DNA of 64,000 bases from positions 32,001 through 96,000 of the IMG/VR virus record IMGVR_UViG_3300045988_166055; one strand, given 5' to 3'. The notes below the pieces were generated by a model. The model was given only the letters and a program-made list of their open reading frames with translations, had not been told where the DNA came from and ran no database searches. Shown piece by piece: positions 14,612 through 63,790 of this stretch. Within the stretch, counting starts at the first letter, position 1. Every line of letters starts with the position of its first letter. The position numbers and the translations under genes are program-made. The DNA is from a virus.

Positions 14612-14634
14612 AATCGTTATAATCAGTGTAGATA
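14612..14634 (+). promoter_or_regulatory. Motif A copy (AATCGTTAT-N6-TGTAGATA)
   Basis: Full bipartite motif. It contains TATAAT (14617-14622), and its 3' half forms the 5' arm of the terminator hairpin. Confidence 0.45.
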
Positions 14635-14662
14635 TCAATTTAGATATCTACACTGATTTTTT
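14622..14662 (+). terminator. Rho-independent terminator after the sheath gene
   Basis: 15-bp perfect stem ATCAGTGTAGATATC / GATATCTACACTGAT, 6-nt loop, then a T6 run. Confidence 0.85.
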
Positions 14663-14685
14663 AATTTTGTTCGGAGGTTCATTAT

Positions 14686-15096
14686 ATGGATGTTAAGATG
14701 AATTTTGGTCATGGTGGAATTGGATGGTGGGCTTTCGTCCTTGAAGATGACGACCTTGTCATTGGTTATCAGTCAGAAGAAAAGTATGATGAAATGTATA
14801 GAGGTAACTTCAAAGGTGTTGATACTCCTCACATTTTTGATATCATGCGCGATGATATTGAAATGTTCTTAAAAATCATAAAGTATTATAAGTGGAGTGC
14901 TGTTCCTTTCCTTAATAATGTTGCCTGTGAAGGATATACTAGAGCAATTGGAGATGTCGTCAAGCTTCTGCCTATGGATATCTATACAGATGCTATTATT
15001 GACGCAGTTAAAAACAATGATACTGATTTGAACAAAGTTGTTCTAAAAGTTGTTGAAAATATTTCAAACTACTATTCTCTTATGCATAAGGGGTGA
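14686..15096 (+). CDS. hypothetical protein
   Basis: 136-aa ORF with a GGAGGT RBS. Confidence 0.65.
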   Translation: MDVKMNFGHGGIGWWAFVLEDDDLVIGYQSEEKYDEMYRGNFKGVDTPHIFDIMRDDIEMFLKIIKYYKWSAVPFLNNVACEGYTRAIGDVVKLLPMDIYTDAIIDAVKNNDTDLNKVVLKVVENISNYYSLMHKG

Positions 15097-15100
15097 TAAT

Positions 15101-15293
15101 ATGACTGTATATGATATGCTTGTTCATAGCAAGAATGTTTATGATGTAGAATTTCGAGATAGCAGGGGGAGTTATTTTTCATAGGATGGACATTGCAAAG
15201 GCAATTACAAGTCAATATCAAAATATGAATGTCATGCAATTTATGCCATTTCTGCTTTCTAATGGATCAATTAAACTAATCATATACGTGTAA
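15101..15293 (+). pseudogene. small gene split by a 1-nt frame change at a T5 run (or two micro-ORFs)
   Basis: ATG 15101 (AAGGGGTG RBS) encodes 27 aa ending at TAG 15182. ATG 15186..15293 encodes 35 aa in the +1 frame. Removing one T from T5 (15175-15179) joins them into one 62-aa ORF. Confidence 0.35.
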
Positions 15294-15302
15294 AGGAAAG
15301 AT

Positions 15303-15512
15303 ATGAAAATTCCTAAGTATGTCCTTGACCTAATCATAAAAAGACAGCGATATGCTGAAAAAGTTATGGATTCAGCTTTCTCTCTTCAAGAATGGCTTGA
15401 TAAGAATGAAATATATGTTGAAGACTATGATCAGATTGGAGGATCAGAAATGTTTGTAAACCCAGATGAATCTGCACGCAGAGTTTTGAAAGCAATCATA
15501 GAAAAGAGGTAA
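15303..15512 (+). CDS. hypothetical protein
   Basis: 69-aa ORF in the array. Confidence 0.55.
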   Translation: MKIPKYVLDLIIKRQRYAEKVMDSAFSLQEWLDKNEIYVEDYDQIGGSEMFVNPDESARRVLKAIIEKR

Positions 15513-15514
15513 CT

Positions 15515-15889
15515 ATGGGCGAATTTCACAAGTGGCCTTCAGGTTATCTTTCATATAACGGATATTTCTACGAAGCGCCATACTATTCTCATATGGCAAC
15601 AGCTACTAAGATAGTTAATATGTATGAGTTACCTAGACCTAGAAATGCAAATTTAGATGAAGATATACTTCTACTATACGGATTCATATGTATTCGTACT
15701 TCGGATGTTTACAAAAGAGCACGGGACTGGGAAGGTAAAATTCTTCTGATTTCCGATAAACAGCAGAAATACTTATCTGACAACTGGAATGAATTCAACG
15801 ATAATCAAAAGAATTGCATTCTAGACTTGATTTCGGATTTCGGCTTGCTGAATAAATTTTACAAGGAGATAGGTGAATGTTCAAAATAA
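15515..15889 (+). CDS. hypothetical protein
   Basis: 124-aa ORF with an AGAGGT RBS. Confidence 0.6.
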   Translation: MGEFHKWPSGYLSYNGYFYEAPYYSHMATATKIVNMYELPRPRNANLDEDILLLYGFICIRTSDVYKRARDWEGKILLISDKQQKYLSDNWNEFNDNQKNCILDLISDFGLLNKFYKEIGECSK

Positions 15890-16098
15890 CAATGACTGTG
15901 AATTTAATCCATTTGAAAGACGGTTACCAGTATCAATATAAGAGAACATACTACAGAAAAACGAGACCTACTGTAAAAGAAATGGGCGCAAGATTAAATA
16001 AGTACGCCTATTCTATCATTTATCAGCTACAGAAAAAGGGAAGAACATGTGTATTTGCAGGTAGACGATGGATCAAGGAGGAAATAGTTGATGATTGA
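15877..16098 (+). CDS. hypothetical protein
   Basis: 73-aa basic protein with an AAGGAG RBS. Confidence 0.55.
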   Translation: MFKITMTVNLIHLKDGYQYQYKRTYYRKTRPTVKEMGARLNKYAYSIIYQLQKKGRTCVFAGRRWIKEEIVDD

Positions 16099-16384
16099 AG
16101 TTGGGCTGCTCATAGTAAATACATTCAAATGTTTTGGAGTAGAATTCAAGCAAACAAATTATAATTCATTTGAAGACGTAATTGAAATTAAAGTTACTGT
16201 TCCCAAAGATAGCGAAATTAAACATTCAAACGGAAAAATCATGGCCGGAAAATTTCTAGCTGAATTACTACGAGATAAAATTAGAGAACGTGGAGTTAAT
16301 TGCAGAGTAGCATACAAAGAAAGAGACGAAACTTGGAATGAATTCAAATACGAGAAGATGAGTAAGGAGATTTACGGTGTTTGA
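16088..16384 (+). CDS. hypothetical protein
   Basis: 98-aa ORF with an AAGGAGG RBS. Confidence 0.6.
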   Translation: MMIEVGLLIVNTFKCFGVEFKQTNYNSFEDVIEIKVTVPKDSEIKHSNGKIMAGKFLAELLRDKIRERGVNCRVAYKERDETWNEFKYEKMSKEIYGV

Positions 16385-16562
16385 ATATAGATATTGTTTC
16401 TTTGAATCAGAAAGTTTTAAGATTGAGGAATTAGTTGATTCTGAAACAAATGAACCTGAATTTGCATTTTACGCTAATAACAAGCTACTTTTTACAACGG
16501 ACAAATACGGGATCAAGGAGATTTGGAATCAGTTAGATAAATTTCTAAAGGAGATTGAATAA
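16377..16562 (+). CDS. hypothetical protein
   Basis: 61-aa ORF with a GTG start 8 nt after AAGGAG. Confidence 0.5.
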   Translation: MFEYRYCFFESESFKIEELVDSETNEPEFAFYANNKLLFTTDKYGIKEIWNQLDKFLKEIE

Positions 16563-16930
16563 TGGGATTATTTGACAAAAAAGGAACAGTAGTATTTGAT
16601 TTTGATGGAGTAATCCATTCGTATACATCAGGTTGGCAAGGTGAAGGTGTAGCAAATGATCCTATTGTTCCAGGAATGGCTGAGGAGCTAAAACGAATTT
16701 ATACTTCTGGATACAAAGTAGTTGTCGTATCAACTAGATGCAATTCAAGAAAAGGAATGGATTGCGTAAATGATTATCTACTAAATAATGGTGTGCTCAA
16801 GTATGTAGACCTAATTACTGCAAAGAAGCCTCCTGCAATATGTTATATTGATGATAGAGCTATTTGTTTTGATGATCATCCTGAAGGGCTTCTTGAGAAG
16901 ATTCAAAATTTCAAACCATGGAACAAATAA
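16562..16930 (+). CDS. small HAD-superfamily phosphatase (nucleotidase-like)
   Basis: HAD motif I 'VVFDFDGVIH', motif II-like 'VVVVSTR', and C-terminal 'CYIDDRAICFDD'. 122 aa. Confidence 0.6.
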   Translation: MGLFDKKGTVVFDFDGVIHSYTSGWQGEGVANDPIVPGMAEELKRIYTSGYKVVVVSTRCNSRKGMDCVNDYLLNNGVLKYVDLITAKKPPAICYIDDRAICFDDHPEGLLEKIQNFKPWNK

Positions 16931-16932
16931 AG

Positions 16933-16956
16933 GCGTCAGAAATATTCTGACGCTTT
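16933..16956 (+). terminator. Rho-independent terminator
   Basis: GCGTCAGAA-ATA-TTCTGACGC gives a 9-bp stem, followed by TTT. Confidence 0.6.
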
Positions 16957-17003
16957 CTATGCGCAACCTTCATTATTGATGATAATTTTATTATTAGTAT
17001 TGA

Positions 17004-17351
17004 GTGGTGATGAAATTGAAAAGAGTTATACTTGCAAGTCTTACTTCTTATTCTTATGTTCTTAAGTTAATATTGAATGACTTATTATCAGAAGGTAAGA
17101 AAGCAGAGATAAGCCCAGATCATAAATGTGTAAATGAATATGATAATGATGGATTCATTATAGGTCAGCAGTATCCTAGAGAAACTGAGCCTACAAAATC
17201 TACTAGGGGAAGATTTGTAAAAGTTCCTGAGGGTAAAGGCAACTACATAATGGTTACATCTGAATATAAGAAACGAAATTTTACAAATGATGATCATTTA
17301 ATAAAACATGTAGATAAAACAAATAAAGACAGCAGATGGAATAAAAAATAA
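17004..17351 (+). CDS. hypothetical protein
   Basis: 115-aa ORF with uncertain start (GTG 17004, GTG 17007 or ATG 17010). Confidence 0.5.
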   Translation: MVMKLKRVILASLTSYSYVLKLILNDLLSEGKKAEISPDHKCVNEYDNDGFIIGQQYPRETEPTKSTRGRFVKVPEGKGNYIMVTSEYKKRNFTNDDHLIKHVDKTNKDSRWNKK

Positions 17352-17517
17352 TCAATTGTGGATTTGAAATAATATGAAAAGATATGTAAGAAGCGATACT
17401 GATAGTCGAAACACTGATTTTGAAATAAAAGAAGGAATTGAATCTGGTTCGGCATCAACAGATACTCCTACGCTCTAACTAAATTCCTTAAATAAAAAGA
17501 GACGACACTGGAGGTAC

Positions 17518-17531
17518 ATATATATATATAT
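17518..17531 (+). repeat. (AT)7 dinucleotide microsatellite between the SD and start codon
   Basis: ATATATATATATAT runs into the ATG at 17530. GGAGG at 17510-17514 is therefore 15 nt from the start codon. Confidence 0.9.
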
Positions 17532-17814
17532 GAAATATTTGATTGCGTATATTCCTTATACCAGATTACCTGAGAATATTGATATTGTATTTTTCGAAAA
17601 TGAAAAAGAACTGCTCCAATTTATTGTAGAATATATTAGATGTGCTCCTGTACAATACGAAGACGGAGTTTTCTACGATTACGACGGATATGAAGTTGAT
17701 TTCTCGTTACGGTCTTGCTTGTCTTATTTAGAATCAAATTTCGTAGGTGATGGATCTTACGGTGCTACTTTGCTAACTATCACAAAAGGTAAAAATGTTC
17801 TGTTCCAAGGCTGA
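17530..17814 (+). CDS. hypothetical protein
   Basis: 94-aa ORF. The SD is present but with unusually long spacing. Confidence 0.55.
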   Translation: MKYLIAYIPYTRLPENIDIVFFENEKELLQFIVEYIRCAPVQYEDGVFYDYDGYEVDFSLRSCLSYLESNFVGDGSYGATLLTITKGKNVLFQG

Positions 17815-17880
17815 TAGATGGGACAATTAAAATATTCAAAGATGGAATCTGCACAATCCTGAAGATGAATTGAAAAAATA

Positions 17881-17919
17881 AATAGAAAGAGCAGACATTA
17901 GTTGTCTGCTCTTTCTATT
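17881..17919. terminator. Bidirectional terminator between convergent genes
   Basis: 17-bp perfect stem AATAGAAAGAGCAGACA / TGTCTGCTCTTTCTATT with a 5-nt loop. It is flanked by an A-run upstream and a T-rich run downstream, so a U-tract follows in both orientations. Confidence 0.85.
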
Positions 17920-17921
17920 TA

Positions 17922-18578
17922 TTATTTGAATTCATATACAGCCGTACCAAGGTCATGATATGGAGAATATCCTAAATTTATCATGTCTGATTCTGTCCAG
18001 TTACTTTGTCTTCTAGAATCATTTGATATGAAATTTACTCCGTTCCACCACCATTTCTTTCTTTGAGTATCTCTTTCAGATTTCATTCCAATTTCCTCGT
18101 AGTCCTCAAAATTATCAAAACAAAAATTTACATAGGAAACAATATTGTACAGACCATAATCAGATGCAAACTTTGATAATATAGAAAATCCATTCTTAAC
18201 ATAGTATCCCGGAAGCATATACATTCTAGATAGTTCAGCATAGTATCGTTTATCTTTTGATTTTTTGAAAGTCATCATGCAGTATATTACACTATCCTTA
18301 ACTAACCCTATAGCTAGAACTGTTCCTTTTGCAGCCTTTAGCGGATAGTACTCATTCATCCAATTATCTGAAATATCTTTATTCAATCTGTATATCTTCA
18401 AATCTTCACCATTTATAATAGTATGATATTCTGGTTTCTTGTAGTAATATCCTAAGAAATTTCTTTTCTTTTCATAAGAAGTCAATCTTTTTGCTTGAAC
18501 CCAATCTAATTTTGAAACATTGTCTACCCCATATCTACCCAAGTTTGTTTGTATTCGTTTATCATTTGATGTGTTCAT
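17922..18578 (-). CDS. free-standing gene related to the C-terminal half of the 56278..58092 endonuclease-like protein
   Basis: This is the only minus-strand gene. GGAGG lies 10 nt before the ATG at 18578 (track ORF trimmed by 13 aa). It has an N-terminal 'LGRYGVDNVSK' repeat-type motif. 'LAIGLVKDSVIYCMMTFKKSK...AELSRMY...NGFSILSKFASDYGLYNIVSY' aligns by eye to 'IKLGLTYNDELVSLMTFGKLR...WELVRFC...GGASKLFKYFVDNYNPEEIRSF'. Confidence 0.6.
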   Translation of the reverse strand: MNTSNDKRIQTNLGRYGVDNVSKLDWVQAKRLTSYEKKRNFLGYYYKKPEYHTIINGEDLKIYRLNKDISDNWMNEYYPLKAAKGTVLAIGLVKDSVIYCMMTFKKSKDKRYYAELSRMYMLPGYYVKNGFSILSKFASDYGLYNIVSYVNFCFDNFEDYEEIGMKSERDTQRKKWWWNGVNFISNDSRRQSNWTESDMINLGYSPYHDLGTAVYEFK

Positions 18579-18692
18579 ACGAAAACTACCTCCTTGTAGA
18601 AAAATATAAGGTATCAATTAGAACATAGTTATATTATCAATCTTTTATTAAATTGCGAAAGCAAATAAACTCGATATAAGGAGGAAGTGTAT

Positions 18693-19238
18693 ATGTTTAC
18701 ACCGCTCAAGCTTGGTACAAACCACATGTTAGGTGTTGATAATTTTATTCCATTGACATCGAATAACTTTGAAATTCGCATATACAACATGGATGGAAGT
18801 GCACCTACTGAGTTCTCAGACCTGCTAACACTTTCAACAGATGAAGTAGGCGAAGTGGTTGAGGAACAGGATTCAATTGTTGTCCATTACGGCAACGGTC
18901 TAATCAAATTCCCGAGTAAGGTTGATTATTCCGATGTTGAATGGACTCTTAACTGCTACTGCAGCCCGAATGTTCTTGAGGCTCTTCGTGAATGGCGTCG
19001 TAAGGTTTATGATCCTGATACCGAAAAAATGGGATTACCATCTGAGTACATGCGTCAGGTATATTTCATCAAGTATGATGGCCAGGGCAATGTTAGAGAT
19101 GTGATCCGTTGCCCCGGTACTTGGATCAAAGGACTAAGCAATGGAGCCCACAATCAAACAGGTGGGGAAGTAGTTAAGGTAAAAACCACGCTCGTTATTT
19201 CAAAAGCAATTTATCTGAAACCTTCTGATCTGCAGTGA
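18693..19238 (+). CDS. tail tube protein (T4 gp19-like fold)
   Basis: GGAGG at 18680-18684 lies 8 nt before ATG 18693. The pattern 'NNFEIRIYN...FPSKVDYSDVEWTLNCY...EALREWRRKV...EYMRQVYFIKYD...VKVKTTLVISKAIY' parallels T4 gp19 'NLFQVEISY...TFDDWTVTVMND...KFVDWQ...EYKKSAIVRQY...FEVTLALDY' by eye. GC-rich codon usage. Confidence 0.6.
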   Translation: MFTPLKLGTNHMLGVDNFIPLTSNNFEIRIYNMDGSAPTEFSDLLTLSTDEVGEVVEEQDSIVVHYGNGLIKFPSKVDYSDVEWTLNCYCSPNVLEALREWRRKVYDPDTEKMGLPSEYMRQVYFIKYDGQGNVRDVIRCPGTWIKGLSNGAHNQTGGEVVKVKTTLVISKAIYLKPSDLQ

Positions 19239-19257
19239 TTGTTCATCAAATTTAACA

Positions 19258-19281
19258 GCTGGTTCGCCAGCCGTTATTTTT
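19258..19281 (+). terminator. weak terminator candidate after the tube gene
   Basis: GCTGG-TTCG-CCAGC (5-bp stem with a UUCG loop), then a T5 run five nt later. Confidence 0.35.
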
Positions 19282-19304
19282 CTACAACCTTCAATTATTT
19301 TGAA

Positions 19305-19313
19305 AATCGTTAT
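19305..19313 (+). promoter_or_regulatory. Motif A copy (AATCGTTAT)
   Basis: Exact 9-mer, intergenic, 31 nt upstream of ATG 19344. Confidence 0.4.
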
Positions 19314-19343
19314 TGAAATTAAGTAAAGATATGAGGTGTAGTT

Positions 19344-19541
19344 ATGAAGAAAACATTCTATCCTGTTTTATGTTCTAAAGATGACATTGAGACATCTGGA
19401 TATGATTTTCACGGATATAGGATAACTAATTCAGGTAGCGGTTGGGTTGTTAGAGGTGGAGGACAGCGAGTCTCTCCCTATTTTGCAACTTCGGATGAAG
19501 CTGAGGAATTTATTCTTGACATGGAGAATGACGATGATTGA
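19344..19541 (+). CDS. hypothetical protein
   Basis: 65-aa ORF with a GAGGTG RBS. 'GWVVRGGGQRVSPYFATSDEAEEF' is reminiscent of DUF2188-type small proteins (weak). Confidence 0.55.
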   Translation: MKKTFYPVLCSKDDIETSGYDFHGYRITNSGSGWVVRGGGQRVSPYFATSDEAEEFILDMENDDD

Positions 19542-19716
19542 TGACATCATTGAAGGATTGCTTGGAGTACTATCTTTACTAATCACTTTAATTGGATACA
19601 TAGTATTATTTGTTATCTTTTTGATAATGATTCTAGTAGGAGTACCTATTTTATTTGTAACTTCTCCTATTTGGATAATACTATTACTTATTGATAGGAA
19701 GGAGAATAAACTTTGA
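19528..19716 (+). CDS. small membrane protein (two predicted TM helices)
   Basis: An internal ATG of track ORF 19447..19716 overlaps the upstream gene end. 'LLGVLSLLITLIGYIVLFVIFLIMILVGVPILFVTSPIWIILLLI' is strongly hydrophobic. Confidence 0.55.
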   Translation: MTMIDDIIEGLLGVLSLLITLIGYIVLFVIFLIMILVGVPILFVTSPIWIILLLIDRKENKL

Positions 19717-19958
19717 AAAGAGTAGTTAGATGTTCAGCTGAAAATACTTTATCTGGTAAATACGTTAAAGATATTTTGAAGAAGATGTCTTTCAAAGATA
19801 AAGTTCGTGTTCAGATGAATAAAGATTCTGTAACGAAGTACGATTTACCTTATGGAGGATTTAGCGGTAAGGTGATTGAAGTTCCTTGGTTCTTCTCTGA
19901 TCTTGCTGTATATTCTGTTAAAAATGATGGAAGCGAAGTAAGGATTCAGGTTAAGTAA
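19713..19958 (+). CDS. hypothetical protein
   Basis: 81-aa ORF with a TTG start after AGGAAGGAG. Confidence 0.5.
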   Translation: MKRVVRCSAENTLSGKYVKDILKKMSFKDKVRVQMNKDSVTKYDLPYGGFSGKVIEVPWFFSDLAVYSVKNDGSEVRIQVK

Positions 19959-19970
19959 ATACAAATTTGA

Positions 19971-20000
19971 ATGACGAGTCTTTCAGGCTCGTCATTTTTT
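19971..20000 (+). terminator. Rho-independent terminator
   Basis: ATGACGAG-N9-CTCGTCAT stem followed by a T6 run. Confidence 0.75.
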
Positions 20001-20013
20001 ATGTTTATTTAAG

Positions 20014-20022
20014 AATCGTTAT
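20014..20022 (+). promoter_or_regulatory. Motif A copy (AATCGTTAT)
   Basis: Exact 9-mer directly after a terminator and 54 nt upstream of ATG 20076. Confidence 0.4.
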
Positions 20023-20075
20023 TATGATTGTAATCAAAATAGATAGACAAAGATCAATTTTAGGAGGTCACCCAA

Positions 20076-20561
20076 ATGTCTTGGATCAATGTAAATGAGC
20101 AGGGAGTTCCTGTAAATGATGAAAGATATCACAACAGATTCAGTTTGTCTTTAGAGTACAAGCCTACTTATGGGCACGCTCTTTGTGTAGAGAAGGAGGA
20201 CGTCATTGCAAGATACAATCGACCCGATGATACCTTCTACGAAGAGAAGACAGGAAAGCCGATCAATTACAGTGATATTCAGTCATGGTATTGTTCATTT
20301 GATGACGGTGAAATCGGAATGAAAATTATTCACCAGGCTGAATTCAAAGTCAAAGGTCTTATGAATGAAATTGTAGTTTGCTACTACATGTTTGGTTATT
20401 ATCTAGTCGATGTTTGGTTTCAGACAGAAGAAACAGATGACAACTCTCCTACTAGAATTAACTACATTAAAACTAAATATTTTACAGTCGCAGAGAAAAA
20501 ATATTATCAGAAGCTGTCTGACCTAAACAAGACAATAGAGGAAAGAGAAAATGTTTGCTGA
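20076..20561 (+). CDS. hypothetical protein
   Basis: 161-aa ORF with an AGGAGGT RBS. Confidence 0.65.
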   Translation: MSWINVNEQGVPVNDERYHNRFSLSLEYKPTYGHALCVEKEDVIARYNRPDDTFYEEKTGKPINYSDIQSWYCSFDDGEIGMKIIHQAEFKVKGLMNEIVVCYYMFGYYLVDVWFQTEETDDNSPTRINYIKTKYFTVAEKKYYQKLSDLNKTIEERENVC

Positions 20562-20952
20562 ACTTAAGAGCAAGGAAGATATTCAGAAAGCTATTGTCGA
20601 ATACTTAGGAGAGGGTGAAAAAGATACTAGAAGAATTGAATTTTCTAAGATCTATGATAAAATTCCTACTTCATTTTTTGACAATGGTGGTATTGTAGCT
20701 TATCACAAAGTTGATTACAACAATGATATTAAAATGCGTGTTTTTCATTGTGACTGGTTCATTGTACCTGAAATTTTCTTCGAATATATTCAGGAAGATA
20801 TGTTTTACCCGGGTCAATGGAGAAGACAATATCGGTCTGGAACTAAAGTTAGTTCTGGATTTGTTTCTAGCTGTTGTGATATGTGGTCGCAAAGATATTC
20901 AAGATTCTGTCCTGACTGCGGAAGAATGATGAAAAGCTACATTGAATATTGA
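20551..20952 (+). CDS. hypothetical protein with C-terminal zinc ribbon
   Basis: 133-aa ORF with 'SSCCDMWSQRYSRFCPDCG' near the C-terminus. Confidence 0.6.
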   Translation: MFAELKSKEDIQKAIVEYLGEGEKDTRRIEFSKIYDKIPTSFFDNGGIVAYHKVDYNNDIKMRVFHCDWFIVPEIFFEYIQEDMFYPGQWRRQYRSGTKVSSGFVSSCCDMWSQRYSRFCPDCGRMMKSYIEY

Positions 20953-20964
20953 TAGGAGCAAATT

Positions 20965-21195
20965 ATGACACTGATTGAACTTCAGAATAAACTTGGAGAG
21001 CAGATTGAAGCTCTAACTAATCCCGAAGCATCAAATGAAACTAGGAAGCAGGCAGCAGAAATTGCTGCTGTTATCTCTAGTTTAGCGAAGCAGATGATAA
21101 ACAATGCAGACATTGTTCTTAGACGCGATAAGATGATTTCTGAAGGTAAGCTTAAGAACTCTGCAATCAATAGTATGATCGGTGATGAGAGGTAA
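20965..21195 (+). CDS. hypothetical coiled-coil protein
   Basis: 76-aa ORF with a TAGGAG RBS. Confidence 0.55.
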   Translation: MTLIELQNKLGEQIEALTNPEASNETRKQAAEIAAVISSLAKQMINNADIVLRRDKMISEGKLKNSAINSMIGDER

Positions 21196-21724: not shown

Positions 21725-21740
21725 ATAAAAATTAAATAAG

Positions 21741-21763
21741 AATCGTTATATTGAATGTAGATA
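21741..21763 (+). promoter_or_regulatory. Motif A copy (AATCGTTAT-N6-TGTAGATA)
   Basis: Full bipartite motif, intergenic, 23 nt upstream of ATG 21786. Confidence 0.45.
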
Positions 21764-21785
21764 AATTTTGATGGAGGTAACAAAT

Positions 21786-22730: not shown

Positions 22731-22731
22731 T

Positions 22732-23001: not shown

Positions 23002-23002
23002 T

Positions 23003-41644: not shown

Positions 41645-41669
41645 TATCAAATCGTATATTTATAATCTT

Positions 41670-56151: not shown

Positions 56152-56187
56152 TCCTTTTAAGGATACTAACTTCATCATTTATCACAG

Positions 56188-56218
56188 CCCGGTCTCGAAA
56201 GAGACCGGGTTTATTTTT
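56188..56218 (+). terminator. Rho-independent terminator after the capsid gene
   Basis: CCCGGTCTC-GAAA-GAGACCGGG (9-bp GC-rich stem with a GNRA loop) followed by TTTATTTTT. Confidence 0.9.
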
Positions 56219-56246
56219 GTATTATTCTATATCATTTCTTTTTCAG

Positions 56247-56255
56247 AATCGTTAT
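56247..56255 (+). promoter_or_regulatory. Motif A copy (AATCGTTAT)
   Basis: Exact 9-mer after the terminator and 23 nt upstream of ATG 56278. Confidence 0.4.
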
Positions 56256-56277
56256 TGTAATTAAGAGGTGATACTAT

Positions 56278-58092: not shown

Positions 58093-58104
58093 TAATTGTA
58101 GATA
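58082..58104 (+). promoter_or_regulatory. Motif A copy (AATCGTTAT-N6-TGTAGATA)
   Basis: Full bipartite motif containing TATAAT and overlapping the stop codon of the upstream gene. It lies 41 nt upstream of ATG 58145. Confidence 0.45.
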
Positions 58105-58144
58105 GAAATGACTTATCAAAATTTATCGAAAGGAACAAAGTTTT

Positions 58145-59032
58145 ATGACAAGAGAAGAACAACTTTCTACTATTAAGCAGCTTCGTGATCTTACAGCAGA
58201 TCTTGAATGGCAGCAGGATACACTTGATGAACTTGAATGGAGCAGCTACGATCCTCCTGTAAAGCCTGTTTTGAAAACATATACCAAGCCTGCATACCCT
58301 GAGCCAGAGTCTTCCATGAGGTTCAACTGGAAGGTTTTCAACTACTTTTGGGCTATTACAGCTCTTATTTTTCTTGGCATCTGTAAGCTGTTTGATACAC
58401 CTATTTTTCTGCTTCTTCACGTAGCTATTACCATTGGATACGTCATGAAGTATCGTGAAATGAAAAAGGCTGATGTTGAGAAAGTTAGAAACTCTGCTGA
58501 ATTCAAAGCTAAGTTGAAGCAAATTGATGATGACTACGACAGTCTGGTTTATGCAGCTAAAGCGAAATACGAAAAGGATATGGATGAATGGAAGAATGAT
58601 TTGATGCCTAGATACGAGATCGACAAGGTCAAGTACGAAGCAAAGAAACGTGAAGATATTGCTAACTGCAAAGCCGCTATCACTCATGACAAGCGAGAAA
58701 TTTCTCGTATTTATGGTGAGACTAAAATCCTTCCTACTGCTTACAGGTCTCTTCCTATTCTAGAATACATTGAAGAATTCATGGCTTCTTCTAACTTCGA
58801 TGTAAATCGAGCAATTGAGAACTACGACAGAGAACAGCAGAGATGCATTGATGAAAAGAGGTTCCAGCAGGAGGTTTATTACAATCAGCTTCAGGAGCAA
58901 ATGGTTGATGCTCAGGAAAGAGCAAACAGCATTGCAGATAGAGCTAGACGCGATGCTAACAGAGCAGATTTTGTTGCAGCTGTTCAGCGTCATAACACTA
59001 ATAAGCATTTGAAGAGGATGGCTGAGAAGTAA
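58145..59032 (+). CDS. membrane-anchored coiled-coil protein
   Basis: 295 aa. The hydrophobic stretch 'VFNYFWAITALIFLGICKLFDTPIFLLLHVAITIGYVM' is followed by a long charged helical region. Confidence 0.65.
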   Translation: MTREEQLSTIKQLRDLTADLEWQQDTLDELEWSSYDPPVKPVLKTYTKPAYPEPESSMRFNWKVFNYFWAITALIFLGICKLFDTPIFLLLHVAITIGYVMKYREMKKADVEKVRNSAEFKAKLKQIDDDYDSLVYAAKAKYEKDMDEWKNDLMPRYEIDKVKYEAKKREDIANCKAAITHDKREISRIYGETKILPTAYRSLPILEYIEEFMASSNFDVNRAIENYDREQQRCIDEKRFQQEVYYNQLQEQMVDAQERANSIADRARRDANRADFVAAVQRHNTNKHLKRMAEK

Positions 59033-59033
59033 T

Positions 59034-59426
59034 ATGAAGAGAGAGAAAGGTGTAAGACATTATTGGGAGATTACTCTTGGCACAGAGACATTTCAAGAAA
59101 AATACAAAGGTGGAGTTTTATGGTACTTGAAACACGATTTTAGGGTACCTCCTCTGCATCCTACACTTCATAACTCATCTTTGGAATCATGGCTGAATGA
59201 CATCAAAGATGGAAATGCAGAAAATGTACCAGATTGGCTTATAGAAAATGTCAAATTCGTAGAAAGTAAATCGTTCAAATGCGATGATTGTGGGAAGATT
59301 GTTTATGAACCAAATCAAGCAATCATCATTCCGGGATACACATTACATTTCTGCTCATATAAGTGTGCTTGCGATTATGGCTTAGGTTGTTACAGACTTT
59401 CTGTTCAAGATGCACTTGATCTTTGA
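59034..59426 (+). CDS. hypothetical protein with C-terminal FCS-type zinc ribbon
   Basis: Contains 'CDDCGKIVYEPNQAIIIPGYTLHFCSYKCA'. Confidence 0.6.
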   Translation: MKREKGVRHYWEITLGTETFQEKYKGGVLWYLKHDFRVPPLHPTLHNSSLESWLNDIKDGNAENVPDWLIENVKFVESKSFKCDDCGKIVYEPNQAIIIPGYTLHFCSYKCACDYGLGCYRLSVQDALDL

Positions 59427-59430
59427 TAAG

Positions 59431-59439
59431 AATCGTTAT
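59431..59439 (+). promoter_or_regulatory. Motif A copy (AATCGTTAT)
   Basis: Exact 9-mer, intergenic, 47 nt upstream of ATG 59486. Confidence 0.4.
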
Positions 59440-59485
59440 ATTAAGTATCTAACATATCAAAACTTGAATACTAGAGGCTACTAAC

Positions 59486-60052
59486 ATGACAATTGCTTAC
59501 TTTGAAGGAAAGAAATACACTACCTGCAAAGATTTAAGAAAAGCTGTATTTGAATGGTGTATTGAAAAAGACATTATTCTTCCTAGCGGATCCTCTATAG
59601 TAAATCTTTGGAAACACTGGAAGATAACAAACAAATATATAGATGTTTTGTCTAGAATTGATATTGTAGATGATAGAGGTGAATTTAGACCCGATAGAAT
59701 TAGATATGTCATTGATGACAAATTCTTTGACAACACAAGCTCGCTGTATCGATATATTGATTTCTATCACAGAAGAGACATTGAGCGTGTTCGAGAAGAG
59801 AACATCAATATGTATCTTTTCAATTCTAGATTTGATACAAGCAAAATGAATTTGAAGAACAAGGTTAAAGTAGTATTTCTTCCTAAAATTTATTGCCCTA
59901 AATGTCATAGAAAGATTTTCCTTGGTGAAAATGTATTTCACACAGATAAAATGTCTAACTATTGTTCGTATGACTGTTTACCTGAAGGTGAAAGATATAT
60001 TCAGAGAATATTAAGAATGGAGGATTTGCTCTATGCCCCAGCGGTCGTATGA
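59486..60052 (+). CDS. hypothetical protein with C-terminal FCS-type zinc ribbon
   Basis: Contains 'CPKCHRKIFLGENVFHTDKMSNYCSYDCL'. Confidence 0.6.
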   Translation: MTIAYFEGKKYTTCKDLRKAVFEWCIEKDIILPSGSSIVNLWKHWKITNKYIDVLSRIDIVDDRGEFRPDRIRYVIDDKFFDNTSSLYRYIDFYHRRDIERVREENINMYLFNSRFDTSKMNLKNKVKVVFLPKIYCPKCHRKIFLGENVFHTDKMSNYCSYDCLPEGERYIQRILRMEDLLYAPAVV

Positions 60053-60218
60053 ATATAAAGGTGTAACAATCTATCTTTATTACTATGGGTGTTTTCTTTT
60101 CTACGCTGAAAAGAATAAATATGGGCTAAAGCACGGACGGTGGAAATGGATTAGTTTTTGCAATACAGATGAAGCGGAACAATTCATAGACAAGCATATA
60201 GATACTTTCTGTTGGTGA
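60033..60218 (+). CDS. hypothetical protein
   Basis: 61-aa ORF with a GGAGGA RBS. Confidence 0.5.
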   Translation: MPQRSYEYKGVTIYLYYYGCFLFYAEKNKYGLKHGRWKWISFCNTDEAEQFIDKHIDTFCW

Positions 60219-61403: not shown

Positions 61404-61425
61404 TAGAGAGGAGGCCTAGTAAGAT

Positions 61426-62136
61426 ATGACTATGGATGAAGTAACTGCTCAAGTTGGATTCTTACTAGGCTTTCCTACTAACGAGAATGTAGAAGAGGTT
61501 GATCTAAGGCAAGCAGTATTGATTGCATTTAGAGAACTAAAAAGATACATTCGTCAGTCAGTGGAAAAGACTGTCCCGTTTCAAACTAGAATAGACTTGC
61601 TCAAGCAAGATATCCATACAAACAAAGTTCTCAATGTTCAAGCTGCCTATCCTAGAATAGGCCTTACAATGAGTAACATAGACAGTGGTAATGTTTTCCA
61701 GGTTGCTGCCGCTGTAAACGCCTATAGTACGATAGGCAACACAAGTTCAATCAACATAGATCCTATAATGTCTGAACTTGCAATGGCTCAAGTCCGTAAC
61801 ACAATTTCTACTGATTTTCAATGGAAATATGATCCGTATAATCAAGTAGTTTATGTTACGCACAGAGATCCATTACCTGCAATGGTAACTATACGATATG
61901 TTCCAGATTTGCAGGATGTATCAGAGATTCAAGGAACAACCTGGATTGACTACTTAGTCCGGATGAGCCTAGCATTCGCAAAAATATCGTTAGGCAGATC
62001 TCGGTCAAAATATACAATTGAGGGCTCTAATGTAACACTTGACGGTGATACACTTCTTCAAGAAGCTAACGCAGAGTTAGAAGCTATAAGAGGTGAACTT
62101 GAGCCTAAGAAAAGTAGACTTGTTGTTTTGAACTAA
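61426..62136 (+). CDS. hypothetical (probably structural) protein
   Basis: 236-aa ORF with a GAGGAGG RBS. Confidence 0.65.
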   Translation: MTMDEVTAQVGFLLGFPTNENVEEVDLRQAVLIAFRELKRYIRQSVEKTVPFQTRIDLLKQDIHTNKVLNVQAAYPRIGLTMSNIDSGNVFQVAAAVNAYSTIGNTSSINIDPIMSELAMAQVRNTISTDFQWKYDPYNQVVYVTHRDPLPAMVTIRYVPDLQDVSEIQGTTWIDYLVRMSLAFAKISLGRSRSKYTIEGSNVTLDGDTLLQEANAELEAIRGELEPKKSRLVVLN

Positions 62137-62161
62137 AATTTTATGAAAAGGAGTCTCTTAC

Positions 62162-62563
62162 ATGTTTGTTTCTAAGAAAAACACTAAGAAGGTAACTGCT
62201 AGCGACGATCTGGATACCGAAGTGATTGAGCCCGAAATGGATGAAGATGTTGTCGATGACACTCCTGATGCTGATGAAGATGTAAATGTTGCCCCTGAGG
62301 CAACTGATCTTCTATTTGAAGCAGAGGATGTAGCGCAGCTGGTTGCAGAAGTGACTGGTCAGCCTGTCGATGTTGACACAGCTGAAGATGGTAATTCTGT
62401 TGAATTCACTGTCGGTGAAGATGTTTTCACTGTTACTGCTGAAGGTGACGAGGAAGTTCTGGAAGCTGTTCGAAAGCCACTGAAGAAAAAGAAGCCTGTG
62501 TCTGCTTCTACTAATAGAAAGCCTGCTGGTAAGACCGTTCGCAAGCTGCCTAGCAAGAAGTAA
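62162..62563 (+). CDS. bipartite acidic/basic protein
   Basis: 133 aa with an AAGGAG RBS. The first ~100 aa are D/E/V-rich, and the tail 'RKPLKKKKPVSASTNRKPAGKTVRKLPSKK' is strongly basic. Confidence 0.6.
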   Translation: MFVSKKNTKKVTASDDLDTEVIEPEMDEDVVDDTPDADEDVNVAPEATDLLFEAEDVAQLVAEVTGQPVDVDTAEDGNSVEFTVGEDVFTVTAEGDEEVLEAVRKPLKKKKPVSASTNRKPAGKTVRKLPSKK

Positions 62564-62643
62564 GATAAATACTATGAAAAAAGAGCTGGTCGTGTCTTAT
62601 CAACATTGATCAGCTCTTTGATTTGTATGAAAGGATTGTTTGT

Positions 62644-63702
62644 ATGGAAAATGTAGAAGCTGGAATCATTGCTAAGCTACTTAAATCACTGCCCAAGTAC
62701 TTAGGCAACGGAATCAATGAGGTAGTTAAGAGAGGAATCAAAGTAGAAGAGTCCAAGCCAGTTGATGGAAAGAATTATGACAGTGGTATCATCTTCGTAG
62801 CTACAAGCGGAAAGGGCACTGTAATTAAGTGTAAGGTTGTACCCGTTCCTGAGAGAAAAGGTAGATTCAACATGTACATCAAGTCCAAGGATGGGAAGAA
62901 AGCATCGTATCCTTCTATAAGTCAAGATCAGATGGATGATAAGATCACTGAATTCTTTGATAAGTTTTATGGTGAAGCTTTTGAAGATGCAGATAACAAT
63001 GAAGATGATTTCAACATGGAAGAGTTCAATGAGGATGAAGACGCAAAGAATCAGTCAGCTGATAACGATGACGCAAGTTCTTCTTCAAAGTTATTCATGA
63101 AGCTGTCTAAAGTTACATCGGGAACAGATTTTCATGTCAATCTAGAGTCTGTTATGGCGAACTATAACACAGTTTCAGCTCTTGCAGATATGACTGCAGT
63201 TGTTAACAACGATGACTTTGTTTCTCTTCTAAGCGAAACTCCTAAATGTTATGAAGTTACAACAGTTGATGGACAACTAGATGTAGCTGATAGTGAAGAT
63301 ATGCCACAATTCAATCCATTTGCTGAACTGCTGAAGGGATATTATGTAGCTACGCTGAATCTAGATTATCTTTCAACGAACTACTCTGGTAGCTCTATGA
63401 ATAGATTAGATCCATATTACATGTCAAGCGACATAAGATATTGGATTCACAATATTGTAACTATAGCAAAGGTGTCAGGTTGCTGCACACCTAATCCCAT
63501 TGACCTTCTTCAAGGGCAAGTAGGAATTGTTTGCGATCAAAACCAGCAAGGATCTTGCTGTATGAAATCTGTTCTAGAAACATTGCTTGCAACAATTGAG
63601 CTATATTATGCAAATTTTTCTCATGACATACAATCTATTCTAGATGATAACATAATCCAGATTAAGACATATATCATGAATATAGGAGTTGCTCAATGTT
63701 AA
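62644..63702 (+). CDS. hypothetical protein
   Basis: ATG 62644 follows AAAGGA (the track start TTG 62623 is less likely). The N-terminus 'MENVEAGIIAKLLKSL' resembles the C-terminus of 52978..53355. Confidence 0.6.
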   Translation: MENVEAGIIAKLLKSLPKYLGNGINEVVKRGIKVEESKPVDGKNYDSGIIFVATSGKGTVIKCKVVPVPERKGRFNMYIKSKDGKKASYPSISQDQMDDKITEFFDKFYGEAFEDADNNEDDFNMEEFNEDEDAKNQSADNDDASSSSKLFMKLSKVTSGTDFHVNLESVMANYNTVSALADMTAVVNNDDFVSLLSETPKCYEVTTVDGQLDVADSEDMPQFNPFAELLKGYYVATLNLDYLSTNYSGSSMNRLDPYYMSSDIRYWIHNIVTIAKVSGCCTPNPIDLLQGQVGIVCDQNQQGSCCMKSVLETLLATIELYYANFSHDIQSILDDNIIQIKTYIMNIGVAQC

Positions 63703-63741
63703 GATAGTAATTCGTTTATTGCATAAAAGTATTTGAAAATT

Positions 63742-63790
63742 ACCTCCTTGAATCGTTATTGTATTTGATATACAATACCTTCAAGGAGGT
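63742..63790 (+). promoter_or_regulatory. hairpin pairing an anti-SD with the SD of the next gene
   Basis: ACCTCCTTGAA (63742-63752) is the perfect complement of TTCAAGGAGGT (63780-63790, which contains the GGAGG SD for ATG 63797). An inner stem ATTGTAT/ATACAAT lies within the loop. Confidence 0.6.
63751..63759 (+). promoter_or_regulatory. Motif A copy (AATCGTTAT)
   Basis: Exact 9-mer located between the two arms of the SD-sequestering hairpin. Confidence 0.4.

Follow-up and report, generated by a model that had tools for sequence, protein, structure and literature searches.

A short sequence word and its strand bias

Why does one nine-letter word, AATCGTTAT, recur on a single strand of a viral DNA, each time shortly ahead of a gene? 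In the 64-kb window (the whole stretch of DNA that was analysed), the exact 9-mer was found on the + strand at 14612, 19305, 20014, 21741, 26928, 56247, 58082, 59431 and 63751, and no copy was found on the - strand. All nine positions first noted were recovered; dinucleotide shuffles of the window gave 0.56 expected copies, with a maximum of 3. One-mismatch variants numbered 33, including the 9 exact copies, versus 22.8 expected, an excess over chance that is not clear. The start codon lay 22-65 nt downstream of the 9-mer end for all nine copies, close to the 20-60 nt first noted. A second box at a 6-nt spacing had also been described, and the composite AATCGTTAT-N6-TGTAGAYA indeed occurred four times (14612, 21741, 26928 and 58082) versus 0.00 expected. 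The copies, here called class A, were as follows.

14612-14634, + strand: class A motif, with the 9-mer at 14612-14620 and a TGTAGATA box at 14627-14634; heads a 136-aa ORF (14686-15096)
19305-19323, + strand: class A motif; heads a 65-aa ORF (19344-19541)
20014-20032, + strand: class A motif; heads a 161-aa ORF (20076-20561)
21741-21763, + strand: class A motif and TGTAGATA box; heads a DUF932 gene (21786-22730)
26928-26950, + strand: class A motif and TGTAGACA box; heads a run of small ORFs from 26993
56247-56265, + strand: class A motif; heads a zinc-ribbon DUF7487 gene (56278-58092)
58082-58104, + strand: class A motif and TGTAGATA box, in the final codons of the DUF7487 gene; heads a 295-aa ORF (58145-59032)
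59431-59449, + strand: class A motif; heads a 188-aa ORF (59486-60052)
63751-63769, + strand: class A motif; heads a DUF6011 gene that starts at 63797 and extends past the window end

The stop codon of the tail-sheath gene, at 14602, directly precedes the first copy, and the gene that follows nrdD, ORF 26446-26958, contains the 26928 copy in its 3' end. At 56247, the ribosome-binding site begins just 8 nt past the 9-mer. A degenerate copy had been suggested at 41650-41659 (+ strand), but its sequence, AATCGTATAT, mismatches the AATCGTTA core and the next start is 113 nt away; this candidate was rejected on present evidence.

The window belongs to a T4-like myovirus of ~143 kb, with T4-like capsid (Gp23), portal (Gp20), gp13 and clamp loader, and HNH endonuclease genes are frequent in its genome. 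This large uncultivated gut or rumen phage, read as a myovirus of Clostridia, has no sequenced cultured relative. We assembled a composite genome from the window and contigs that are near-identical, not identical, to it (89-100% identity in overlaps). There, the 8-mer AATCGTTA had 29 + strand and 0 - strand copies, compared with ~4 per strand by our own estimate from base composition. Behind it lie genes for replication, nucleotide metabolism and tRNAs, small ORFs and a sigma-factor operon, and no virion gene in the composite genome. The genes behind the motif had been described as non-structural or accessory. They are non-structural, but not accessory only, since they include core replication genes, tRNAs and the sigma-factor operon outside the window. 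The motif thus appears to be a general promoter of pre-late genes rather than a marker of accessory genes.

Related loci showed the same placement. In 933 kb, comprising the window and the first 47 loci, the motif occurred 128 times, of which 79 fell in non-coding DNA (7% of the sequence), and 74 of these 79 pointed at the next gene. The core was retained in relatives with 59-67% capsid protein identity, where its density in non-coding DNA was ~17 times that in coding DNA (36 loci: 45 intergenic co-directional sites in 47 kb of non-coding versus 38 sites across 597 kb of coding sequence). Unrelated phage loci from the same searches had essentially no motif. In relatives L024, L117, L120 and L122, the motif was inverted together with minus-strand genes, and the DUF932 genes of the distant L117 and L120 were likewise preceded by it. 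Across deep divergence, it was conserved in front of syntenic core genes (after PolA, after RecA, at the sigma operon and at DUF932). The 56247 site was kept in relatives with 59-99% capsid identity, some of them with replaced flanking DNA; in L004 and L005, it lies within replaced, non-homologous DNA following the capsid gene. Where the downstream block is missing (L003 and L005), the 58082 motif has decayed to AATTGTCAT or AATCGTCAT. Persistence in replaced flanks and decay after downstream loss suggest selection tied to function.

Core geometry and adjoining hairpins

What is conserved is an 8-mer core, AATCGTTA, after which comes T, A or, rarely, G. A TATAAT/TATATT-like hexamer had been seen in the motif; its TA is kept, while the rest is merely W-rich, since orthologous sites in relatives read AATCGTTAA or AATCGTTAG. 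To describe the geometry, we used 92 non-redundant sites having both a ribosome-binding site and an ORF. The invariant motif bases amounted to ~15 bits, and no position upstream of -2 was conserved in these sites, in agreement with the lack of a conserved -35 box first noted. The ribosome-binding site never started before motif position 14 and showed a sharp edge at positions 16-19. Its distance from the motif ranged from 6 to >80 nt, with a lower bound only and no upper one, and the ATG was at motif position 28-34 in many sites. Position 15 was a pyrimidine in 81/92 sites and position 16 a purine in 83/92. From this limit at position 14 and the Y15/R16 step, we infer that transcription would start at the conserved pyrimidine-purine step, about 7-10 nt beyond the 8-mer. 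The 8-mer would then occupy about -16 to -9, or up to -18 to -11, followed by an AT-rich stretch, and in the tightest cases the leader would consist of little beyond the ribosome-binding site. Because this start is good to ~3 nt only, TTA(W) is not pinned as T-12/A-11 of a -10-like element. The TGTAGAYA box elaborates locally on a signal that is weaker but shared across the family (Y15, R16 and A18).

The extended -10 consensus is TGnTATAAT, or TRTGnTATAAT in Gram-positive bacteria. Like it, the motif is independent of a -35 box and has its specificity just upstream of a TA-initiated AT-rich hexamer. However, C-G replaces T-G, nothing in the consensus corresponds to AATCG, the five invariant bases upstream, and the hexamer reads T-A-W-w-n-W, just AT-rich after TA. 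Judged by these bases, the motif is not a strict extended -10 element.

The following hairpins lie at or near motif copies.

19258-19271, + strand: weak terminator-like hairpin, upstream of the 19305 motif
19969-19997, + strand: intrinsic-terminator-like hairpin with 13 pairs and a T-run, ending ~17 nt before the 20014 motif
56186-56211, + strand: intrinsic terminator with 11 pairs (7 G-C) and a T-run, behind the major capsid gene and before the 56247 motif
14621-14666, + strand: 16-bp perfect hairpin with a T-run, the two spanning 14621-14658, beginning right after the 9-mer of 14612
63742-63790, + strand: hairpin formed between the ribosome-binding site, TTCAAGGAGGT, of the gene at 63797 and an anti-Shine-Dalgarno arm, ACCTCCTTGAA, that lies upstream of the motif

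Thus, the copies at 20014 and 56247 do follow terminators immediately, as first noticed. The intrinsic terminators end 17-35 nt before these copies and leave no room for another promoter, which argues that the motif itself is the promoter. In addition, its presence ahead of tRNA genes excludes a purely translational signal. The motif had also been described as embedded in a stem-loop at 14612 and 63751. A hairpin exists at both, but at 14612 it begins after the 9-mer, and the motif at 63751-63759 is located in the loop region. The 14621-14666 hairpin is likely a terminator for sheath-gene transcripts. Its folding gave a dG of -26.1 for read-through RNA versus -11.7 from position 16; since the inferred start (~14627-14630) lies inside the 5' arm, RNA started at the motif would keep a 9-bp stem only, apart from the T-run. 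For 63742-63790, the dG was -23.0 for read-through and -3.9 for motif-started RNA, and relative L010 has an equivalent structure of different sequence (-26.0 versus -3.7). According to this modeling, the ribosome-binding site would be hidden in read-through RNA and free in RNA started at the motif. In the T4 genes e, soc and I-TevI, hairpins sequester the ribosome-binding site of read-through RNA and leave it free in internally started RNA, and the 63751 hairpin looks similar. Units may thus be insulated by a terminator just upstream of the motif, by a terminator hairpin beginning after it, which motif-started RNA would escape, or, at 63751, by an anti-Shine-Dalgarno arm that would silence read-through RNA alone. 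Of the 29 genome copies, 4 had a 14-16 bp hairpin and a T-run right after the motif, several more came after a terminator, and most had no adjoining stem-loop.

Candidate readers of the motif

Two further promoter types were found in the window.

30030-30058, + strand: host sigma-A-type promoter TTGACT-N17-TATAAT (11/12), the sole strong one in the window
12474-12484, + strand: aACCTTGTATA, a second phage-specific class, heading the sheath operon
1364, 32754, 51467 and 60219, + strand, and 18612, - strand: other copies of aACCTTRTATA

The promoter at 30030-30058 appears to represent a separate early class. The aACCTTRTATA element heads sheath, tape-measure block, baseplate, neck, holin and tail-fibre genes, that is, structural and lysis genes.

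The phage encodes three sigma or sigma-like proteins, of 175, 254 and 230 aa. The 175-aa protein matched Sigma70_r2 and TIGR02937 above the cut-offs, and its gene lies behind a class A motif (in the distant L071, behind a ATTCGTTAA variant). The 254-aa and 230-aa proteins had no Pfam match, and their genes each follow a sigma-A-type promoter, which for the 230-aa gene is conserved in a 42%-identical relative. Both gave confident models (pLDDT 82 and 87, respectively), and their Foldseek lists contained mostly sigma factors with weak E-values (0.01-3), gp55-type models ranking low. Alignment of the sigma-like proteins with canonical phage sigma by hhalign was not significant, and tblastn of both proteins against 50,697 phage records gave no match. 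In relatives L120 and L124, the 254-aa gene carries a class A motif, which would fit autoregulation and indicates that the label "early gene" is not universal.

Taken with the distribution and geometry above, these genes make it probable that AATCGTTA(T/A) is the core element of a -35-less, phage-specific promoter class for pre-late ("middle") genes, read by the host polymerase with a phage sigma-like factor. An extended -10-type or phage-factor-dependent class had been proposed; its second part is favoured by the three sigma-type genes and the separate host and late classes, its first part not. Host RNA polymerase with host sigma-A would read a handful of consensus TTGACT-N17-TATAAT promoters, two of which would express the divergent 254-aa and 230-aa proteins. 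One of these would bring the polymerase to AATCGTTA promoters, turning on replication, nucleotide-metabolism, tRNA and many small genes as well as the canonical 175-aa sigma operon, and aACCTTRTATA would then drive structural and lysis genes. With three sigma-type proteins and two phage-specific motifs, more than one pairing of factor and motif is possible; the 175-aa sigma could read class A through read-through bootstrapping.

We considered it unlikely that the motif is an early promoter for the unmodified host sigma-A holoenzyme, an unusual extended -10 with AATCG replacing TRTG and no phage factor. It does have an invariant T-A followed by W-rich bases, its G would match the extended -10 G if the start were position 18, TATAAT follows AATCGT in some copies (14612 and 58082), and one copy beyond the window, at composite 87198, goes together with a TTGACT -35 box that is spaced 17 bp from a TATAAT. 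However, the T-15 and T-7 contacts are not kept (C for T-15, just W at the -7 equivalent), 0/9 window sites scored above chance level in a sigma-70 scan, and the same genome has a separate near-consensus sigma-A class. The ~15 invariant bits also persist across phages with 59-67% capsid identity, probably with different hosts, and we know of no reason for host sigma-A to require AATCG. About equally improbable is a binding site for a MotA-like activator or sigma-appropriation factor, with the host sigma-A holoenzyme recruited to a weak adjacent -10 and no sigma-type protein reading the motif itself. Middle promoters of T4-type phages use MotA-style sigma appropriation, this phage shares the T4-like proteins listed above, and the distribution and conservation of the motif would be equally well accounted for. 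Yet with a box centred near -30, transcription would begin past the start codon where the ATG is at 28-34, and an activator would need to occupy -16 to -9, the seat of sigma region 2/3. No MotA- or AsiA-like protein was found among the proteins scanned, and three sigma-type proteins are present.

An RNA-level leader signal instead of a DNA promoter, such as a nuclease cleavage site or translational operator (cf. T4 RegB/RegA targets), is very improbable. A strand-specific motif near ribosome-binding sites would suit it, but several copies lie <40 nt after intrinsic terminators with no promoter between and would seldom be transcribed; others precede tRNA genes, and an Rfam search gave no match. 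The variable ribosome-binding-site spacing with a lower bound only is explained by a start site, not by an operator. Equally slight is the chance that the motif is a recombination or homing target for shuffling modules, as a PeSL-like cassette or an endonuclease site would be, any promoter activity being secondary. The frequent HNH endonuclease genes would agree with it, as would indels between close relatives: a deletion that begins ~10 nt past 58082, an insertion of 237 bp immediately before 63751 and the replacement of a segment around 56247. The L001 indels (W56612-58035 and W59037-60043), however, end away from motifs. Strict co-orientation with genes, the minimum ribosome-binding-site spacing and deep conservation at syntenic core genes would also be unexpected of such a target.

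Likeness to known promoter systems

PeSLs and PmSLs are composite promoter-terminator cassettes of T4-like phages (PMC2839356, PMC4122927); PeSLs have near-consensus sigma-70-type -35/-10 promoters, and PmSLs a Mot box and a -10 (PMC4122927). The resemblance to PeSLs first proposed holds for the layout, a promoter coupled to a stem-loop or terminator by small variable genes, and for the few indels abutting the motif. It does not extend to the promoter type, since class A is neither sigma-70 -35/-10 nor Mot box plus -10, and most copies lack a stem-loop.

Class A also shares with T4 late promoters a single 8-bp element near -10 without a -35 box, close to ribosome-binding sites, in a T4-like genome (Gp23 capsid, Gp20 portal, clamp loader) having to redirect the host polymerase. 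T4 late promoters, TATAAATA, are recognised by gp55, a sigma factor that acts together with gp33 and the sliding clamp. The AATCGTTA sequence is unrelated to theirs and serves replication, nucleotide-metabolism and tRNA genes, the late-like role here falling to aACCTTRTATA. Its candidate readers, two-domain sigma-like proteins, differ from the region-2-only gp55 type.

In the sigma cascade of Bacillus phage SPO1, gp28 reads middle promoters and gp33/gp34 late ones. Those promoters have two parts, a -35 and a -10 box ~17-19 bp apart, whereas the -35 element is absent here, and no sequence resembling SPO1-type proteins was found. SPO1 and this phage are both large Gram-positive myoviruses with three promoter classes and several phage sigma-type genes. 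The order proposed here, from host sigma-A-type early promoters to phage sigma proteins that retarget the core polymerase to a phage consensus, would follow that of SPO1, and the class A promoter would be a new instance of a well-known type of phage gene control.

Distribution and conservation of the motif

Nearly all genes of the window were on the + strand; the sole minus-strand gene was at 17922-18617. The identified products are listed below.

Products encoded in the window
HNH endonuclease
large terminase
T4-type portal (PF07230)
tail sheath
anaerobic ribonucleotide reductase NrdD
dUTPase
DUF932 protein
tape-measure-like protein
CHAP/lysozyme tail protein
baseplate wedge protein
prohead protease
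Gp23-type major capsid protein
gp13-like neck protein

The repeated 9-mer AATCGTTAT was found nine times in the 64-kb window, always on the + strand, while dinucleotide-preserving shuffles gave a mean of 0.56 copies and a maximum of 3. The nine + strand copies of the original prediction were thus borne out in number and in coordinates. The family (A)GAATCGTTAT was the most over-represented one among the 10- and 11-mers of the window. The predicted second box, TGTAGAYA, was confirmed after a fixed gap of 6 nt in four copies, versus 0.00 expected. Each of the nine copies was followed, after 22-65 nt, by a start codon that had a ribosome-binding site. Variants of the 9-mer with one mismatch occurred on both strands of the window, mostly in coding sequence and not clearly above chance. 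Those at 31335, 37277 and other positions, all within coding sequence and at chance frequency, were not accepted as members, and the supposed degenerate copy at 41650 was also rejected from the class. An Rfam scan of the window gave no family, and a search of the literature for the motif gave chance occurrences only; an occurrence in a SigN promoter table was irrelevant.

None of 50,697 phage records matched window 14000-22000 in a megablast search, and a search of the phage collection with the portal protein returned a single distant phage at 24% identity; therefore, no cultured relative or published transcriptome was usable for comparison. With the capsid protein as the query, 47 IMG/VR loci of 59-99% identity were obtained on contigs of 75-250 kb (L numbers denote such loci of relatives, mostly metagenomic), and exact-protein look-ups gave contigs of 142-150 kb that were 99.6-100% identical to the window ends. 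A composite genome of 143,162 bp was walked along IMGVR_UViG_3300045988_156599 and close relatives. Its parts outside the window come from contigs 89-100% identical in the overlaps and represent the phage of the window only to that degree.

The conserved 8-mer core AATCGTTA, which marks the putative promoter class named class A here, was present in 29 copies on the + strand and 0 on the - strand of the composite genome. The chance expectation estimated from base composition was about 4 per strand, and 3 or 4 of the 29 copies resembled chance copies within genes (80686, 119856, 137088).

Units headed by class A copies in the composite genome
gene after DNA polymerase A
gene after RecA
DpdA-like gene
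ligase/ThyX operon
UvrD helicase operon
several units of the 16-tRNA cluster
many small ORFs
operon containing the sigma-factor gene

None of the composite copies headed a virion or lysis gene. The genes behind the motif had been described as non-structural or accessory; a restriction to accessory genes does not hold, since replication, nucleotide and tRNA genes were also headed. The 16-tRNA cluster (L089 6082-14431) was located about 22 kb past the window end in the composite genome, and AATCGTTA preceded several of its tRNA genes.

The same preference was examined across the family. In the set formed by the window and the first 47 loci (933 kb), 79 of the 128 core occurrences were in non-coding DNA, which made up 7% of this set according to crude gene calls, and 74 of these 79 were directed at the next gene. 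Among the most divergent relatives (36 loci, 644 kb, capsid identity of 59-67%), 45 intergenic co-directional sites were found in 47 kb of non-coding DNA, versus 38 within the 597 kb of coding sequence; the motif was about 17-fold denser in non-coding DNA when all 50 intergenic sites were counted. Where relatives had genes on the opposite strand, the motif flipped with the gene. The core was essentially absent from unrelated phages fetched via weak matches.

The site following the capsid terminator was retained in most relatives, with the surrounding intergenic DNA being unalignable. Loci without the exact 9-mer had AATCGTTAA or AATCGTTAG at this site; therefore, the core is AATCGTTA followed by W. 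In L004 and L005, window 56201-57255 was swapped for non-homologous DNA, and the motif was still there, before a different 5' gene end. In L003 and L005, window 58101-60136 was deleted from about 10 nt past the 58082 copy, and the orphaned motif had degraded to AATTGTCAT or AATCGTCAT. A class A element was kept before DUF932 genes and the sigma operon in distant relatives, as the variant ATTCGTTAA in the sigma operon of L071; variants within the clade included ATTCGTTAA and AGTCGTTAT. The motif is a genuine family-wide element, judged functional, and a new putative promoter consensus in an undescribed phage clade, for which metagenomic relatives number in the hundreds, with several hundred contigs >120 kb.

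The DUF7487 zinc-ribbon gene 3' of the capsid gene (window 56278-58092) was very variable in length among relatives of 94-99% identity. It had an internal deletion of about 1.4 kb in L001 (11497-11830), and its 5' part was replaced in L004 and L005. A 20-bp perfect palindromic bidirectional terminator (window 17877-17923) was found between the + gene at 17530-17814 and the minus-strand gene at 17922-18617.

Predicted start site and local arrangements of the class A motif

Terminator-like hairpins were found upstream of the copies at 20014 and 56247, as had been predicted, with the motif 17-35 nt past the intrinsic terminator. Because no other promoter fits between terminator and motif at these two sites, the motif itself would be the promoter rather than an RNA signal, and the copies before tRNA genes also argue against an RNA signal. 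The motif is very probably a promoter core element. The whole statement, that it is the core of a phage promoter that is active at the middle stage and depends on a phage factor, is somewhat favored.

Motif positions were numbered from 0 at the first A, and logos were made from the 9 window sites, 58 family sites and 92 non-redundant family sites; the last set was limited to sites with an ORF of 40 codons or more behind a ribosome-binding site and start codon. No conserved position was found upstream of -2 in the 9, 58 or 92 sites, indicating that there is no -35 box. In the 92-site logo, position 8 was T in 61, A in 28, G in 3 and C in 0 sites, positions 9-14 were AT-rich, position 15 was a pyrimidine in 81 sites, position 16 was a purine in 83, and position 18 was A in 60. 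The TGTAGAYA box of the window covers positions 15-22 and is a locally strengthened form of this family-wide signal at positions 15, 16 and 18. Among the same 92 sites, the earliest ribosome-binding site started at position 14, with a pile-up at 16-19, where the start codons were at 28-34. From the lower bound set by the ribosome-binding sites and the pyrimidine-purine step, we infer a transcription start at around positions 15-18. Such a start would put the 8-mer between about -16 and -9, or as far upstream as -18 to -11. The geometry fits a -10-proximal recognition element, with AATCG in place of the extended -10 region, and the invariant T-A at positions 6-7 may correspond to T-12/A-11, given a start at position 18. 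The equivalent of hexamer position 6 was only W (T in 48 and A in 37 of the 92 sites), and class A sites reached at best 9/12 in a sigma-70 consensus scan, which is the chance level.

Arrangements of terminators and hairpins at class A copies
terminator then motif: window 20014 and 56247; composite 72755 and 140019
motif then a 14-16 bp perfect hairpin with a T-run, from position 8-9: window 14612; composite 78396, 116112 and 119297

The predicted stability of the hairpins in the second arrangement was -18 to -23 kcal/mol and fell to -6.5 to -13 kcal/mol if the RNA begins at position 16; the stem left in such an RNA was detached from the T-run. Thus, the hairpin could stop transcripts of the upstream unit (the sheath gene at 14612) and spare transcripts that begin at the motif. 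The motif at 63751 is flanked by an anti-Shine-Dalgarno arm on its 5' side and, on its 3' side, by the ribosome-binding site with which this arm would pair, with a predicted energy of -23.0 kcal/mol in read-through RNA versus -3.9 kcal/mol from position 16. The same layout was found with a different sequence in L010 (-26.0 versus -3.7 kcal/mol). The motif had been predicted to be embedded in a stem-loop at 14612 and 63751; hairpins were predicted at both sites, with the one at 63751 spanning the motif and the one at 14612 beginning after the 9-mer. The three local arrangements would make sense only with a start just 3' of the 8-mer, and a start placed there would let terminators and anti-Shine-Dalgarno arms act on read-through RNA only. 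The T4 genes e, soc and I-TevI have a known device that the gating at 63751, predicted here from sequence, resembles.

Comparison with known promoter systems

Promoters read by host sigma-70/sigma-A carry a TTGACA-like -35 hexamer 16-18 bp 5' of the -10 element, which class A lacks. The proposed extended -10 reading did not hold either, as an invariant C-G is found where an extended -10 promoter has T-G at -15/-14. The T4 late promoter (gp55), with TATAAATA at -10, shares the absence of a -35 box with class A, but the sequences differ (AATCGTTA in class A), and T4 late promoters head virion and lysis genes, whereas class A heads replication, nucleotide, tRNA and small genes. The geometry of T4 middle promoters (MotA/AsiA), a box near -30 plus a -10 element 11-13 bp downstream, was incompatible with the positions of the ribosome-binding sites: in about 20 non-redundant sites, these begin at 14-19 and ATG follows at 28-34, so a start about 30 nt past the motif is impossible there. 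As in SPO1, phage sigma-like genes (254 and 230 aa) are found behind host-type early promoters, and a 175-aa sigma is also present; one of these three sigma-type proteins presumably reads the class A motif. However, SPO1-type phage-sigma promoters are bipartite (-35/-10), whereas class A has a single element. A similarity to SPO1 late promoters (CGTTAGA ... GATATT) was discarded since the spacing was about 9 bp and not about 18. An ECF (group 4) promoter, with an AAC -35 element about 16-17 bp 5' of a CGT -10 element, was also discarded, since CGT was present but AAC was not enriched; 19305 alone had AACCTT at the ECF spacing. By analogy, class A would work like the phage-specific promoter classes of T4 and SPO1 while being a member of neither. 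It is textbook knowledge that phage sigma proteins read such phage-specific classes, and the finding overturns no concept.

The motif had also been likened to PeSLs. These elements were defined on near-consensus sigma-70 early promoters (PMC4122927), whereas the class A motif is not of the sigma-70 type. Among the 29 composite copies, a hairpin followed directly in 4 and a terminator directly preceded about 5. Boundaries of indels or replacements fell at motifs in 3 cases versus 2 elsewhere, an equivocal result from a 20-kb comparison of seven relatives. The likeness is partial: a minority of copies form composite promoter/terminator elements beside small variable genes, and the promoter type differs.

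Other promoter classes, sigma-like proteins and a proposed cascade

Two further promoter types were found, one of the host sigma-A type (TTGACT-N17-TATAAT, near-consensus, often in the context AGGTATTGACTTTT) and one with the motif aACCTT(G/A)TAT(A), named class B.

Sigma-A-type and class B sites
sigma-A type, intergenic: window 30030-30058; composite 87198, 122034(-), 122512(-), 122987(+), 130563(+) and 130613(-)
class B, + strand: window 1364, 12474, 32754, 51467, 53812 and 60219
class B, - strand: window 18604-18612
class B, outside the window: L074, L089 and L104

The 7 class B copies in the window (1.36 expected) were strand-specific and intergenic, and headed the sheath operon, the pre-tape-measure block, the baseplate/head block, the neck block and the lone minus-strand gene. 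Outside the window, the motif headed holin and tail-fibre/baseplate blocks (Gp10_C, Phage_tail_C), and aACCTTRTATA was family-wide. Class B is probably a late promoter class. Classes A and B are built alike: a 5-bp block and a single base precede T-A, which is followed by T or W. In some relatives, both motifs occurred in tandem before one gene, as CCTTATATagAATCGTTAT and as AATCGTTAT...CCTTATAT (L020 11570-11589; L024 13821-13848), which suggests that the gene is expressed in both periods. The sigma-A-type promoter at window 30030 headed a 397-aa protein (phrog_2319), and the TTG start at 30030 in the ORF list is actually its -35 box.

A scan of about 75 proteins, among them every ORF >440 aa of the window and the composite genome, gave no RNA polymerase domain. 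The 175-aa protein (L074:4872-5399) belongs to the sigma-70 family (Sigma70_r2, 32.5 bits; TIGR02937, 67.9 bits; phrog_351, 7.6e-27), with SigK/E/F/G as the nearest named families. Its operon began with a class A motif immediately past a terminator, and a class B motif lay 3' of the gene.

Sigma-like proteins
L097:14987-15760, - strand: 254 aa; 57-100% identity to the homologs listed; 662 homologs; AlphaFold2 mean pLDDT 82
L084:14901-15608, + strand: 230 aa; 41-99% identity to the homologs listed; 381 homologs; AlphaFold2 mean pLDDT 87

Both proteins were conserved and had no Pfam, PHROG or PDB sequence match; profile searches of the two families against PDB sequences gave only noise, and tblastn against the 50,697 phage records gave no match. 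With the 254-aa model, sigma factors made up 11 of the 12 top Foldseek PDB matches (probabilities of 0.99 for a SigD model and 0.9 for Thermus sigma-A), the top viral matches were phage sigma factors, and sigma-E region 2 superposed at 2.8-4.5 Å over about 92-120 aligned columns. With the 230-aa model, sigma factors formed most of the top 50 matches. Foldseek E-values were weak for both models (0.01-3), and hhalign gave no significant alignment to the 175-aa sigma, the top alignment of the 254-aa family falling on sigma region 2.1. In their predicted structures, the two proteins resemble sigma factors. Sigma-A-type promoters preceded both genes in the composite genome. The promoter AGGTATTGACTT...TATAAT before the 230-aa gene was also found in a 42%-identical relative, where a class A motif lay directly 3' of the gene. 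In L120 and L124, the 254-aa gene had a class A motif also or instead, which would fit autoregulation. Scans of other early-region proteins (397, 382, 394 and 197 aa) with Pfam, PHROG and NCBIfam gave nothing usable.

In the simplest scheme, these elements could be ordered into a cascade. A few early promoters would be read by host sigma-A, and an early sigma-like protein would then steer the polymerase to AATCGTTA promoters; the 254-aa protein is, with low confidence, the first candidate for this role on conservation grounds. The AATCGTTA promoters would drive the 175-aa sigma together with functions in replication and accessory roles, followed by aACCTTRTATA promoters for virion and lysis genes. 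In its full form, the proposal is tentative and rather doubtful: a large clade of uncultivated T4-like Clostridia phages would run a three-step cascade in which the 254-aa and 230-aa proteins, as newly recognised sigma-like families, retarget the host polymerase to two promoters without a -35 box, AATCG-T-TA (middle) and ACCTT-R-TA (late), with a start site that spares motif-started RNA from terminators and anti-Shine-Dalgarno arms. If true, the two sigma/promoter systems would form a natural and compact orthogonal pair, on which the reading of duplex DNA at -18 to -12 by sigma region 2/3 could be tested; if confirmed, sigma-like proteins outside Pfam and their short elements would supply synthetic biology in Gram-positive bacteria with orthogonal pairs. 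Together, the promoter classes, the terminators and the sigma candidates give a working early/middle/late regulatory map for abundant uncultured gut/rumen phages, most of whose genes are unannotated, and the motif is a simple specific marker of temporal gene class and clade membership and for gene-start correction.

Several other features were observed in these genomes. A dGTP-diphosphohydrolase-N domain protein (window 684-1328), a DpdA-like queuine tRNA-ribosyltransferase homolog (phrog_887; L052:7478-8440) and a weak PTPS/QueD-like protein (L060:6142-6579) hint at 7-deazaguanine modification of phage DNA. In one close relative, the gene for the clamp-loader large subunit (L054 1055-3373) contained an intein (772 aa versus 337 aa; PF14890 Intein_splicing). 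A non-coding AT-rich stretch of about 1.1-1.5 kb with short repeats (ttcaaatt / caatttgaaa) was located between divergent early promoters and adjoining the 254-aa gene (L097 ~15760-16900, composite 121.9-123.0 kb; L117 2480-4000); an origin or a regulatory hub may lie there. The complete chromosome of Ruminococcus callidus ATCC 27760 (1551790-1558497, L123; DNA of 38.6% G+C) encoded a homolog with 50% identity to the 254-aa protein; this locus may belong to a prophage of the phage family and may point to the host. The remaining matches in the genome collection were contigs of 127-148 kb and one of 68 kb, binned in Clostridia, Ruminococcus and, implausibly, Bacteroidales MAGs.
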